Origin: Octopus sinensis
Taxonomy: Eukaryota
DNA length: 64,000 nt
Direction: 5' to 3'
Assembly: GCF_006345805.1 (NCBI RefSeq)
Contig: NC_042998.1
Location: 103,912,001-103,976,000, forward strand
Position numbers and translations under genes: made by a program. Positions within the stretch are counted from its first letter, which is position 1. The number at the start of each line of letters is the position of its first letter. This document shows, in pieces, positions 7,765 to 61,500 of the stretch. The notes under the pieces are model-generated. The model was not told where the DNA came from. It ran no database searches and was given only the letters and a program-made list of their open reading frames with translations.

Positions 7765-7890
7765 GTCCAACAGCTGTTTCTGAGGGCTCGACGATCCATA
7801 AAAATATTGGTAGATTTACTTCATCACAATATGCAATCATATAGATGCAATTAACATTGGATGAGACGAGCTTCCGTCATCAGGGTAGAG
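7765..7890 (-). ncRNA. Type-I hammerhead ribozyme-like motif with long stem II, partly degenerate
   Basis: Minus strand: acc-CTGATGA-cggaagctcgtctcatcca...tggatcgtcgagccctca-GAAA-CAGCTG-TT-ggac. Core intact, stem II arms gctcg/cgagc and atcca/tggat, palindromic stem III. Stem I only 2 bp. Confidence 0.55.
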
Positions 7891-9404
7891 AAGATTTTAT
7901 TTTTTAGACAGTCAAATTTGAATCTTTTGAGCACTACCACGTGTCTTCTATACGAAGAATCTCTGGATCTCGTGTGCAAACTATATATGTATAGTTATAT
8001 ATATATATATATATATATATATATATATATATATATATATATTTCTCATTAAGAAATCTAATAACGTAATAGAAACAGATATATACTACAAGCCTAAGGA
8101 TTCCAAGCAATATCTTCCATTCAATTCATGCCACCCCAGACACACCAGAATAAATATCCCCTTCAACCTAGCAAAAAGGATATGTACTATAGTTTCTAAT
8201 GCAAGCACCGGAGACACACGACTACATGAACTAAAGAACACACTCATCACCAAGAACTATCCACCTTCACTAATTGACATATGCTTTCAACGTGCCCTTC
8301 CACTCAACATCCAGGAACTCAGACATCCCAAATTAAAGAAAAATTTACAACCAAAAGCCTTACCATACATTTCCACACACAACCCTCTCAACAATGAAAC
8401 CTTCGACACCATCCTCCAAAAAGGATCACAGAATGAACTTAATCCTCCAAACACACACCATCATAAAAAGCAAGAGACAGCCCAAATCTATGAAAAGTCT
8501 CTTAACACAAGCCCGAATACGCTCAACAACACAGAAGCCGTCAGTAAAAAAATGTGGAAGACCCAATTGTGGGATATGCGATTATCTAATTGAGGGATCA
8601 GAGTTCTGCTTCAAACAGGGACAACGTTTCACAGTGAAAAGCAACTTCACATGTGCTTCGGAGAACCTGATATACACACTAACCCGCTCTGGGCGTCAAG
8701 AGCAATACATAGGCCAAACAAAAAATAGTTTACGTGAAAGAATGGCCCTGCACAGATCCCAGATAAAAATTCCCCAAAACAGAAAAATAGCATTCAGCCA
8801 ACACATCGACATTTGTGTCAACAACAAAAATCCAAGCTTCAGAATTATTCCCCTCTAACAATTCAAGGACGATACAACCTGGAGCCAACGAATTAGTAAA
8901 GAAACTCTCTTTATTACAAAATGCAATCCCCTTCTAAACCCGTCTACGACAAATGACATATCCACCTCGGCCTTAGAATAACACAAATACACACGCAAAT
9001 ATTAAAAATGATACATTCAAGAGATTCTTCTTCTTCTTCTTCTTCTTCTTCTTCTTCTTCTTCTTCTTCTTCTTCTTCTTCTTCTTCTTCTTCTTCTTCT
9101 TCTTCTTCTCCCTTCTCCTTCCTAACTTTATCACTAATGCTCTTTAGAATATTCTATTAACAAAACATTCAAAAGAAATATTTTCATGAATTGAACAGGG
9201 ACTGCTACCAAACACTGACCATTCAAAATACTATTATCATGGCACTCCCAATTTATTATTATTCCCCTTCTCCCCCACCTCCTTCCTTTTTTTCTTCTTC
9301 TTCCCTACCAAGAATTCACAAGGACCTTGAACTCATAAGAGTAATCAAGAGAGACAGAGACAGGCAGAAACAAGGAAAATGCCACTTATATTTGAACACT
9401 ATTC

Positions 9405-9786
9405 TCTCTTTTACTCTTCCTCTTTTACTTGTTTCAGTCATTTGACTGCGGCCATGCTGGAGCACCGCCTTTAATCGAGCAACTTGACCCCGGGACTTAT
9501 TCTTTTGTAAGCCCAGTACTTATTCTATCGATCTCTTTTTACCGAACCGCTAAGTAACGGGGACATAAACACACCAACATCTGTTGTCAAGCAATGCTAG
9601 GGGGGAAAACACAGACACACAAAAACACACACGCATATATATATACATATATACGACGGGCTTCTTTCAGTTTCCGTCTACCAAATCCACTCACAAGGCT
9701 TTGGTCGGCCCGAGGCTATAGTAGAAGAACCCGGAATCATGTGGTTGGTAAGCAAGCTACTTACTACACAGCCACTCCTGCGCCTA
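9405..9786 (-). mobile_element. tRNA-derived SINE family A (octopus OR/OK-type)
   Basis: Reverse complement of the plus copy at 46222-46605 (ggtgctccagcatggccgcagtcaaatgactgaaacaagtaaaaga tail; gtggctgtgtagtaagtagcttgc head). Confidence 0.85.
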
Positions 9787-9850
9787 TACAAATATTCTTT
9801 TAAATAAACTTTTCTTTTAATTTTTTCTAAATTTAATTATTTAATTGTTA

Positions 9851-9886
9851 CAGTTGAAAAAGTCTCAATAACTGAAACCGGTACTG
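9851..9886 (+). ncRNA. Minimal type-I hammerhead ribozyme, U3-A8 core variant
   Basis: CAG-TTGAAAA-AGT-ctcaata-ACT-GAAA-CCGG-TA-CTG: stem I CAG/CTG, stem II AGT/ACT, palindromic stem III CCGG, GUA cleavage triplet. Lies at the 3' end of the PLE. Confidence 0.65.
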
Positions 9887-10789
9887 AAATGTTTTTTATA
9901 GAATTATTTTAGCATTTTCTATCTTGACTTTTTTTCCATATATATCAACTCGTGTGTTCCTTTTCATCCTTATATATATATATATATATATATATATATA
10001 TATATTATATATATATATATATATGTGTGTGTGTGTGTGTGTATATATGTATGTATATATATATAATATATATATATATATATATATATATATATGTATA
10101 TATGTATATATATATAAGTGTGTATGTATATATATGTATATATATGAATATATATGTATATATATATGTATATATATATATATATATATATATATATATA
10201 TATATATATTATATATATATATATATATATATATATATATATATTATATATACATATATGATACATATATACATACATAATTTCGGGTGTGAATGTATGA
10301 GTGTGTGAGGTAATTCCAGACTGTAGTCGTCGAACAAAAGTAGATTCCCAGGAGTTTTGCTCATCTCAATTATGTCCATGCCTTTCCTTTTTCCATGTTT
10401 AATTTTGTAACAGACATACTACTGGAGGTGAACTCTTGATAATGTTGTCCATAAATGTGGTCAATAACCGGAGGTTTAAAACAGTAAGAGGAACAAAAAT
10501 AAAAAAAAATGTTAAATGCTTAAAATTCAGATTTTAACTTTCTTTACTATATTTACTAAACACACTTAAGCAAGACAATAAGGTATACTGTTGTAAAGAT
10601 TGCTTTCTAGTTATTATTATAAGTATATTTGTAAACACATAATTAATAAAGATATTCAGAGTTGATTATGGATGGAAATATCAAAGGGAAGATTATTAAG
10701 TTTCATTTAAGCATAATGAGTACACGGTATGTGTTGGAAAGTTGAAAAATTATACAACCATATGTGCATACATATATACGTAAATATAT

Positions 10790-12120
10790 ATATATATATC
10801 TGTGTGTGTGTGTGTGTGTGCGTATGTGTGTGTATCTATATCTATCTATGTATATGTATATATATATTTATATCTATCTATCTATCTATCTATTTATCTA
10901 TCTATCTATCTATCTATCTATCTATCTATCTATATATATATATATATATATATATATATATATATATATATATATATATATATATATATATATATATGTA
11001 TAAATATATATAGACATACACGCGCACACACGTACACACATACGCACACATGAGAATATATATATTATATATATTATTATGTCTGTTTATATGTATGAAA
11101 TAGACCGATATTTTAAATATGAAAAATGGATCGTAGTTTCAGGGTATCAGCATTTAATTATTAGAATTAATGTGTTGTGGGGCGAGGTATGTGCAGAGAG
11201 GGAGAACGAAAGAAAGTGTTAGCGATTAAAACTGAATATCATTGACTAGTTGATTACAATGTCCATTAGATATACATGCATACGCGAATATATATATATA
11301 TTATATATATATATATATATATATATATATATATATATATATATATATATGTAATATATATATATATATATATATATATTATATATATATATGTAATATA
11401 TATATATATATACATAAATACTGTATATATATGTGTGTGTGTGTGTGGTGTGTGTGTGTGTGTGTGTGTGTGTGTGTGTGCGTATGTGTGTGTATCTATA
11501 TCTATCTATGTATATGTATATATATATTTATATCTATCTATCTATCTATCTATATATCTATCTATCTATCTATCTATCTATCTATCTATATATATATATA
11601 TAATATATATATATATATATATATTATATATATATATATTATATATATGTATAAATATATATAGACATACACGCGCACACACGTACACACATAAGCACAC
11701 ATGAGAATATATATATTTATATATATTATTATGTCTGTTTATATGTATGAAATAGACCGATATTTTAAATATGAAAAATTGATCGTAGTTTCAGGGTATC
11801 AGCAATTTAATTATTAGAATTAAATGTGTTGTGGGGCGAGGTATGTGCAGAGAGGGAGAACGAAAGAAAGTGTTAGCGATTAAAACTGAATATCAGTGAC
11901 TAGTTGATTACAATGTCCATTAGATATACATGCATACGCGAATATATATATATATATATATATATATATATATATATATATATATGTAATATATATATAT
12001 ATATGTATATATATATATTATATATATATATATATATATATATATATACATAAATACTGTATATATATGTGTGTGTGTGGTGTGTGTGTGTGTGTGGTGT
12101 GTGTGTGTGTGTGTGTGCGT
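10790..12120. repeat. Near-identical tandem duplication, ~660-bp unit
   Basis: Unique segment 11050-11290 recurs at 11700-11945, and microsatellite block 10800-11050 recurs at 11460-11700. Confidence 0.85.
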
Positions 12121-60100: not shown

Positions 60101-60701
60101 GTAAACGTGGAAACGATGTTCTTGAAGAAGGAATAGCTATTAGTTTTTGGTGTTGATCAGTTAGTTATGAGTGAATAAAAAGGCTTCTGGTTACGATGGT
60201 GGCTGTATTCATGTTACATAGTAGATTAAGCCAGGTGAAATCTGTCCTTGCTTTTCTATGATCTAGGTGGAATTCTTGTTGACTAGCTGTTCGCTAGACA
60301 CGTTTTAGAATAAGGCACCGTTTTATTTATCTTTGACTGTTCAATCTTTCCCTGACAAAGGACAAAGTGAATTGTTCAACAGCTACATGTGCGTATGTAT
60401 GTGTGTGTGTGCGCGCACGAGTGTGCTTGTGTGTGTATAAATATATATATATATATATATATATATATATATATATTATATATATATATAAGAGATAATG
60501 GTGTCATAGAGACCCAAAGGTGTCAGGTAATGCTGAATAAGTGCTATAGACAGACCATAGTTAAGTTCCAGATTCGGTAATATTGCGAATAAAGGGTTCA
60601 ACATTGGTTCTATGTCAGCGTGTGTATGTAAGAATTTATTTCGTAATAAGATGAAAAAAAAACCAAGGCTGTATAAATATTAGAGCATTTATAGATAGAA
60701 G

Positions 60702-60749
60702 GTCTTACAGCTGTTTCTGGGATATTAATAATATCCCTTCATCGGAGAC
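60702..60749 (-). ncRNA. Minimal type-I hammerhead ribozyme (U4C core variant)
   Basis: Minus strand: GTCT-CCGATGA-A-GGGATATT-att-AATATCCC-A-GAAA-CAGCTG-TA-AGAC. 4-bp stem I, 8-bp stem II, palindromic stem III, GUA site. Confidence 0.72.
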
Positions 60750-61043
60750 GGTGTGAGAGAAAAATTAAGTCATAGTTAGTTTCGATGTGATACAAAATAG
60801 AGAGTGAGGTGGAGGAAAGAAAATAGATGTAAGATATGTATGGATATTGAAGTTGCAAATCCATTTTATAGGCATAATGGTATATATGCAATATTCCAAT
60901 AGCCTTTGAGTAAAATCCAAAAGTCCAACAGAGTCGCACTGTTTCCGTTGAATTAGGTACTTAAATTCAGATTTTGAATTCCATTATTAATGTAAACATG
61001 TTTTAAAAAAATAGTTGTATCCTTATGTTTGAAGTTTATGCGG

Positions 61044-61128
61044 TAATCTGACGAGAACGATTTCTTTTAAATTGATGTAATGTTTTCATTAATCAATTAA
61101 AGGAATCGCTTGAAACAGCTGTAATGAA
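61044..61128 (+). ncRNA. Type-I hammerhead-like motif with long stem II and weak stem I
   Basis: CTGACGA (61048-54), hairpin cgattt..aattgat / atcaatt..aatcg, then GAAACAGCTGTA (61112-23). Confidence 0.55.
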
Positions 61129-61439
61129 TTGACACTTGTACATCTTTGTTACTTATGAATATCTATTTATATAACAAATTAAAAGGGGTGGCTTACTAGC
61201 AAGTAGAACCTAAAGGCAAAAGTGATAAAAGTTTATCGTCACTACTGTTGACCCCGACATATCATAATAATGTTTACAAATCTATTTCTGCCGTTACATA
61301 TATATATATATATATATATATATATATATATATATATATATACATATATACTTACACAAACAATTATATATATATATATATATATATATATATATATATA
61401 CATTTCATGTATATAAGTATTTCACTCATATTCGCGTAT

Positions 61440-61500
61440 TTGCCGCTGAAGAGGGGAAAATTTCTTATTAATTAACCCCGAAATTGGACCAATACGGTAA
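61440..61500 (+). ncRNA. Canonical-core type-I hammerhead ribozyme
   Basis: TTGCCG-CTGAAGA-GGGG-(19 nt)-CCCC-GAAA-TTGG-A-CCAA-TA-CGGTAA. 6-bp stem I, 4-bp G-C stem II, quasi-palindromic stem III; predicted cleavage after 61494 (AUA). Confidence 0.82.

Follow-up and report, generated by a model that had tools for sequence, protein, structure and literature searches.

In the genome of Octopus sinensis, hammerhead ribozyme motifs use all four Watson-Crick combinations (C-G, U-A, G-C and A-U) for the core pair formed by positions 3 and 8. The motifs of its Penelope-like element (PLE) families likely self-cut in the RNA of the source elements, where selection likely maintains pairing at 3-8 and allows the letters of the pair to change; the probability of this reading, which rests on sequence comparison, is put at roughly 0.75. 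The families suggest at least three double swaps (C-G/U-A, U-A/G-C and U-A/A-U) of no established order, and the reverse transcriptase (RT) tree comprised only elements of this genome, without reference elements and the C-G families. The analysis set out from a window of 64,000 nucleotides (nt) on contig NC_042998.1 (assembly GCF_006345805.1, positions 103,912,001 to 103,976,000 of the forward strand), which is approximately 34% GC and rich in microsatellites, and in which an earlier sequence-only reading had described seven type I hammerhead folds, here named by the window positions of their cores.

All seven 7-nt cores were present where that reading had placed them, each carried a Watson-Crick 3-8 pair, and each belonged to a genome-wide repeat family. 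As folds, five were clean (9854, 38038, 46066, 60745 and 61446) and two, 61048 and 7880, were weak; the clean five were also those recovered by a descriptor that left positions 3 and 8 free (core N3-U-G-A-N-N8-A, GAAA, UH and three stems). With stem I set to at least 3 base pairs (bp), the window gave five Watson-Crick and one non-Watson-Crick match, against 0.53 and 0.97 in 30 shuffles. A strict descriptor, tuned after these motifs had been seen, retained four motifs against none in 50 of 50 shuffles, and dropped 9854 because the stem II of its window copy has 3 bp. All seven motifs lay within 300 nt of a (TA)5+ array, compared to 35% of random window positions. Rfam returned no hammerhead among the best 150 of 225 matches to the window, where everything shown was a microRNA match driven by (TA)n, and six loci yielded none at gathering score, although its coverage of minimal PLE motifs is not established.

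Between families, the 3-8 pair is Watson-Crick much more often than expected by chance. A blind scan of 960 kilobases (kb) of collected loci, in which half of the clusters came from targeted searches, yielded 18 motif clusters, of which 17 were Watson-Crick at 3-8 (nine C-G, six U-A, one G-C and one A-U), while the lone U-C cluster was retroelement coding sequence with a stem I composed nearly entirely of G.U pairs. When position 8 was permuted, 17 or more pairs arose in 0 of 200,000 trials, a value that overstates independence, given the common descent of the clusters and the targeting of half of them. Among untargeted clusters 10 of 10 were paired (p=0.0046), including the hand-picked locus L213, and nine of nine were paired when it was left out (exact p=0.012, by hand). 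A random 400 kb contained seven matches from five insertions, all Watson-Crick, against 0.125 in shuffles, and a looser scan gave seven paired and one unpaired match against 1.7. A chance origin of the motifs, within palindromic AT-rich repeats or hairpins resembling miniature inverted-repeat transposable elements, is very improbable in view of the blind scan and the window shuffles, of reversed-pattern controls that were zero for five family patterns, and of the agreement of motif position and strand with PLE hammerheads. Chance families nevertheless exist, as two recurrent pattern matches proved to be coding sequence of unrelated retroelements, and 7880 is nearly without stem I.

The association with PLE open reading frames (ORFs) was established family by family. 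Genome pattern counts given here cover both strands and count the two arms of an inverted copy twice, and per-family tallies were made by eye from 100 matches listed for each. One motif had been said to end a GIY-YIG fragment, which is correct for 9854: between this motif and its ORF stands a SINE-like insertion at about 9402-9783, which splits the 3' untranslated region between the GIY-YIG fragment and the motif and is missing from relatives. Alignment of this PLE by blastn falls into pieces (8045-9004, 9047-9401 and 9784 onward). Its GIY-YIG frame (fragment 8045-8960) is broken by a frameshift and stops, the domain match (PF01541, E=0.001) is under the Pfam cut-off, and amino acid (aa) identity to the element in L160 is approximately 81%. 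The 9854 family numbers 1,436 candidates, and in its relatives stem II has 4 bp (AGTC/GACT). Long relatives (L160, L189 and L190) combine RT and endonuclease with a CX4CxxC linker, an inverted 5' copy and a U3-A8 motif. Pfam recognised GIY-YIG in L160 at E=0.0007 and, in L198, RVT_1 at E=7e-08 and GIY-YIG at E=0.014.

Freeing positions 3 and 8 in the group with stem III ACCGGU, to which 9854 belongs, gave 9,445 matches against 2,404 in the control and exposed an A3-U8 family, no copy of which was found within the window. Its core is AUGAAUA, its stem I has 5 bp, its stem II has 2 bp and a tetraloop, and the site is GUC. It gave 572 strict matches (control 0), with A3-U8 in 93 of the 100 listed, and in 5 of 13 loci the motif is preceded, on its own strand, by a Neptune-like endonuclease end 42-60% identical to that of L160.

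The G3-C8 core at 38038 represents family G (4,117 pattern matches genome-wide, control 0). In L191, the family G motif follows, at a distance of approximately 1 kb, an open frame of 793 aa that combines RT motifs and a linker of the form CX3CxxC with an end resembling GIY-YIG; the same ORF is carried by L192, L193 and L195. The L191 ORF had no Pfam match; its nearest Atlas clusters were RT and GIY-YIG proteins (0.97), and a weak tblastn match gave 28% identity to the L160 RT over 111 aa. Family U, represented by 46066, has 1,693 matches genome-wide (control 0) and an upstream ORF in L233-L235 that is 39-59% aa identical to that of family G. The 3' ends of the two families align over about 160 nt behind the motif, and between them double changes separate both the 3-8 pair (G-C against U-A) and a stem II pair (C-G against U-A). 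No ORF for family U was found in L200, L201 and L203, and an endonuclease upstream of family U in L051 was rejected as its partner, that PLE having its own U3-A8 motif. An extra nucleotide between A9 and G10.1-C11.1 is present in 38038 and 46066, which fit the descriptor only when this additional G is allowed, and absent from 9854, 61446 and the A3-U8 family. Across family G contigs from four runs that carry the labels organisms A-D, neither G3 nor C8 had a variant at 5%, in contrast to loop II.

Families 9854, 38038, 46066, 60745 and A3-U8 all have their motif in a PLE terminal repeat, in sense to the ORF. An inverted 5'-truncated copy with a one-sided tail was seen in L160, L189-L195, L227, L231, L232 and, within the window, at 37900-38159 and 45906-46178; the minus arm of the family G stub is without an intact core. 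In family G copies, two 3' ends are fixed and the AT-rich sequence beyond them is heterogeneous, and no ORF recurred beyond the 3' end among the first 100 of 677 matches. Their 5' breaks concentrate just upstream of the core, with three of 100 listed matches starting at the predicted cut and no excess of 5' ends there.

The 60745 group, defined by stem III ACAGCUGU, gave 8,737 matches against 70 in the control. The window copy has an A.A mismatch at the base of stem II in addition to U4C, and in L202 a CxCX5C linker and a CxxC endonuclease end lie approximately 180 nt upstream of a 60745-type motif. In many copies of this Hydra-like group, CCGAUGA (U4C) and CUGAUGA (U4) cores stand side by side; U4C may be a subfamily state or the product of CpG decay from a C4 source. 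The clade names Neptune, Nematis and Hydra are assigned by linker motifs, not by a tree with reference proteins.

The remaining motifs are less readily attached to PLEs. The 61048 motif fails the descriptor, its stem I having decayed; in its family (1,930 candidates) stem I reads TCAT/ATGA in four of five relatives and G8 is lost in two of five. The weakest motif, 7880 (581 candidates), has a stem I of 2 bp, as have five of five relatives. No PLE ORF or PLE protein match was found near 61048 or 7880 in the loci of five relatives each. In the ACAGCUGU group, several families (L118, L128, window 7880 and 61048) have stem II extensions of 55-95 nt, which size-limited searches would miss. The 61446 family (156 strict matches, 2,028 candidates) is a non-coding tandem unit of approximately 490 nt, repeated head to tail between (TA)n in L209 and L210; the former holds three such copies, with longest frames of 88 aa and no PLE-like ORF. 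Outside the window, a U3-A8 family with stem III ACGCGU forms head-to-tail arrays with a unit of approximately 360 nt and up to seven copies among the matches listed (G000:C1:28192960-28195157 and similar), a retrozyme-like candidate. A large C3-G8 minimal family with stem III ACGU (L214), of which no copy was found in the window, accounts for most of the first 100 of 8,810 matches.

These observations bear on the sequence-only proposal of non-autonomous retrozyme-like families, taken here as independent elements that would spread by circular RNAs from tandem hammerheads. Such an origin would suit the repeats of the 61446 family and the approximately 360-nt arrays, as well as the two window copies 350 nt apart (36959 and 36609) and the lack of an ORF link for 61048 and 7880. 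As an account of the set as a whole, however, it is improbable. Four of the seven families (9854, 38038, 46066 and 60745) run upstream into PLE ORFs of three lineages, indicating that their copies are truncated 3' ends rather than separate non-autonomous elements, and these four show inverted 5' copies and tails of the kind left by PLE insertion (PMC8557442). Of the seven families, only that of 61446 would fit the proposal. The family of 36959 and 36609, which is C3-G8 in 25 of 29 matches, is small, and its 12-14-nt palindromic stem III could fold as a monomer.

Within families the pair behaves differently from between them. The claim that position 3 or 8 never changes without its partner did not survive the inspection of 400 listed matches from four families, in which position 3 had changed 13 times and position 8 nine times, never both; the absence of double changes is uninformative, as only about 0.24 were expected. 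Nor does the claim agree with the two U3.G8 copies in the window or with a young subfamily fixed almost throughout for U3.G8. The free position 7 had changed 13 times in the same matches, so that positions 3 and 8 decay like a free position, which argues for selection on source elements and not on inserted copies. The suggested selection on folding is thus likely between families, where the pair nearly always stays Watson-Crick, but not visible within them, where the decay of inserted copies looks neutral.

An alternative is that PLE RNA retains the fold for a structural or protein-binding role, or as a slowly decaying relic, with cleavage itself not selected. Much of what weighs against self-cutting in source elements would favour this alternative. 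A young Neptune-like subfamily (L227-L230, G000:C1:197676400-197680400 and others) is U3.G8 in 98 of 99 matches, with one A missing at the cut site, which is thereby shifted, and has amplified all the same. Its DNA is approximately 94-96% identical to that of a U3-A8 sister with several hundred near-identical matches, and L227 has long RT and endonuclease frames; the subfamily may have spread despite a crippled motif, or U3.G8 may be a step on the way between U-A and C-G. Stubs would derive from mostly uncleaved RNA, and minimal PLE hammerheads cleave poorly in vitro (PMC4209133). In the Anolis Poseidon element PAc (Frangieh et al. 2024), catalytic hammerhead mutants insert normally in vitro and no RNA-seq reads end at the cut site (PMC11167929). 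Further points against self-cutting in source elements, besides the inflated permutation value, are that stem covariation inside the A3-U8 family is not above shuffles (73/500, 245/500), that predicted monomer folds are unstable for both 9854 (+7.2 kcal/mol) and the A3-U8 motif (+6.2 kcal/mol), and that stem III self-duplexes are negligible (AAUU +2.2 and AAUAUU -0.2 kcal/mol). Against the alternative, pairing at 3-8 belongs to the core contacts linked with cleavage (PMC3088659, PMC11167929), and a relic would not be expected to stay Watson-Crick there across lineages whose ORFs are only 25-60% identical, nor to keep GAAA and UH in the blind-scan clusters, though the descriptor demands both. 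A role without selected cleavage is considered unlikely.

Self-cutting in source-element RNA, kept by selection on the 3-8 pair, could be accommodated in the following scheme. The PLE endonuclease would nick AT-rich DNA, and reverse transcription would begin at one of two sites downstream of the motif on mostly uncleaved RNA, as extrapolated from PMC11167929; the use of two start sites would produce the tail. Reverse transcription would often halt or flip soon after the motif had been copied, leaving stubs of 0.15-0.3 kb. In tandem or read-through transcripts, two motifs may pair via the palindromic stem III and cut after UH, trimming the RNA, probably with help from the PLE protein. Fold prediction agrees with a need for partners, as the monomer stem III has 0-2 bp for AAUU, AAUAUU, ACCGGU and ACAGCUGU and 4 bp for 61446, such that among the seven named motifs only the last could build stem III alone and the others need a partner via the palindrome. 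The 3-8 pair itself likely shifts by compensatory steps via tolerated intermediates such as U.G. Consistent with this scheme, copies end at constant 3' positions, include inverted ones truncated at the 5' end, are flanked by (TA)n or other AT-rich sequence, and mostly keep the motif intact in stubs. The window's head-to-head copies of 38038 and 46066 are predicted to fold into long hairpins (-198.6 and -134.4 kcal/mol, respectively) that bury the motif, and are probably inert. A bolder extension, to which slightly less than even odds are given, is that the families form a still-mobile natural series of four pairs plus a U.G intermediate, in which G3-C8 and A3-U8 are active and new from animals and catalysis is selected in transposition.

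Table 1. Hammerhead motifs and associated elements located in the window (positions counted from its first letter)
Feature	Position	Strand	Description
5'-truncated Neptune-like PLE	8045..9945	+	RT thumb, CX4CxxC linker, GIY-YIG endonuclease, 3' untranslated region; ends at (TA)n
Hammerhead motif 9854	9851..9886	+	U3-A8, stem III ACCGGU, predicted cut after A9883; in 3' pseudo-long terminal repeat (pLTR) of PLE
Hammerhead motif 38038, family G	38031..38081	+	G3-C8 with extra G, 7-bp stem I, stem III AAUAUU, predicted cut after U38074
Family G stub	37836..38159	.	PLE 3' end with inverted 5'-truncated copy; arms 37900-38159, 90%; ~65-nt tail on one side
Hammerhead motif 46066, family U	46063..46099	+	U3-A8 with extra G, stem III AAUU; sister of family G
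Family U stub, head-to-head	45845..46178	.	Second U3-A8 core at 46034 (-), stem I only 2 bp
Hammerhead motif 60745	60702..60749	-	C3-G8 with U4C, stem III ACAGCUGU; stub 60625-60924 of Hydra-clade-like PLE 3' end
Decayed hammerhead motif 61048	61044..61127	+	C3-G8, long stem II, stem III ACAGCUGU; unit ~60971-61173
Hammerhead motif 61446	61440..61500	+	C3-G8, 6-bp stem I, 4-bp monomer stem III; stub 61414 to ~61630
Weak hammerhead-like motif 7880	7765..7887	-	C3-G8, long stem II, stem III ACAGCUGU; opposite strand to PLE fragment, not part of it
Decayed hammerhead motif	36918..36963	-	Core at 36959, U3.G8; absent from the sequence-only reading
Second decayed copy, same family, tandem	36567..36613	-	Core at 36609, U3.G8; 350 nt from 36959; likewise absent from the sequence-only reading
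Helitron-like non-autonomous composite	37366..39313	-	TC start, subterminal hairpin, CTAG end; between A and T

The family G stub is a passenger of the 1.95-kb Helitron-like unit (Table 1), so that retrotransposition does not account for its full copy number. This composite was delimited by the end rules of Helitrons; its left end is common to 29 of 29 relatives, nine of which extend to approximately 39315. It carries a 103-bp tandem repeat and a SINE-like piece besides the hairpin with the PLE hammerhead, is present genome-wide in many near-identical copies, and appears to extend an older, shorter Helitron-like element with a second 5' end near 37742. Elsewhere, in L031, a family G insertion with an apparent 13-bp target duplication (by eye) lies inside a mariner-like element. 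Only one host gene exon stands out clearly in the window, a 445-codon frame with three C2H2 zinc fingers of Sp/KLF type (4087-5424, minus strand). The stretch 34432-34780 on the minus strand had no Pfam match and is taken to resemble the restriction-like endonuclease end of a non-LTR retrotransposon.

Among recurrent matches with a 3-8 mismatch, CTGATTA was rejected as coding sequence on the other strand (by eye, presumably of a LINE-like RT), ATGATCA as endonuclease coding sequence (presumably restriction-like) and CTGACTA as a chance match in a long stem II, the true C3-G8 core lying approximately 95 nt upstream. A general minimal-motif pattern was abandoned for its high background (17,545 matches against 7,332).

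The hammerhead of PLEs is a poor cutter alone and was dispensable for insertion in the one in vitro system; family-fixed double swaps at a contact tied to cleavage provide genetic evidence for a selected active conformation in source elements. Sister pairs in this genome (G-C against U-A, U-A against U.G at approximately 95% DNA identity, and U-A against A-U) offer natural test sets. As had been anticipated, searches requiring CUGANGA would miss the variant cores, of which there are thousands in this genome, and some PLE families considered hammerhead-less may merit a rescan with positions 3 and 8 free.

Much of the system is already published, namely PLE hammerheads, the U3-A8 variant, the extra nucleotide, inverted pairs and (TA)n targeting, so the suggestion that these families are undescribed does not extend to U3-A8 (PMC4209133). 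For the other two forms, no natural G3-C8 or A3-U8 family was found in the literature searched, the scope of which left aside Lunse 2017, Przybilski and Hammann 2007 and part of the PMC4209133 supplement, nor in the literature on hammerheads with octopus or cephalopod. The minimal hammerheads of metazoan PLE pseudo-LTRs (Cervera and de la Pena 2014) have no defined loop 1 and include approximately 1,300 U3-A8 matches in Schistosoma (PMC4209133). Like them, the octopus motifs have a type I fold with a short palindromic stem III, in 38038 and 46066 an extra nucleotide at 9/10.1, and a G10.1-C11.1 pair, and occur as solitary copies from truncated PLEs, as opposite-strand pairs and in a U3-A8 variant (PMC4209133). 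The descriptors of that study allowed only C3-G8 or U3-A8, and its 56 representative PLE motifs, a list without a cephalopod, comprise 53 C3-G8, two U3-A8 and one U3.G8, with no G3-C8 or A3-U8 among them (PMC4209133).

Comparable variation is known beyond PLEs, as natural core variants show U3-A8 covariation, U4C and a 2-bp stem II (Perreault et al. 2011; PMC3088659), the text of that study naming only U3-A8 for 3-8 variation where G3-C8 and A3-U8 are added here. The 61446 family and the approximately 360-nt U3-A8 arrays resemble animal non-LTR retrozymes in being short non-coding tandem type I repeats (Cervera and de la Pena 2020; PMC7229834), although the 61446 unit slightly exceeds the retrozyme range of 150-450 bp and has a PLE-type 5' inversion. 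With the endonuclease-bearing (EN+) PLE clades (Craig et al. 2021), the octopus elements share the CX2-5CxxC linker (L160, L191), the CxCX5C linker of the Hydra clade (L202), the (TA)n preference, the inverted 5'-truncated copy and the tail (PMC8557442). Hydra-1_oBim places the Hydra clade in an octopus, its motif being of a different family from those described here, and the cores in File S2 of that study all begin with ctga (C3), unlike the G3, A3 and U3 families (PMC8557442).

The closest experimental counterpart is PAc, in which the hammerhead is protein-assisted and reverse transcription starts internally at two sites (PMC11167929). The octopus elements are alike in their probably uncleaved RNA template, two 3' ends giving a tail and AT-rich targets, but whereas the PAc ORF begins inside the motif, the octopus motifs lie 0.2-1 kb behind a stop codon (PMC11167929). 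In PAc, C3G or G8C abolishes cleavage and the double mutant partly restores it; G3-C8, an engineered rescue there, is found here in nature, in a family numbering thousands of matches (PMC11167929).

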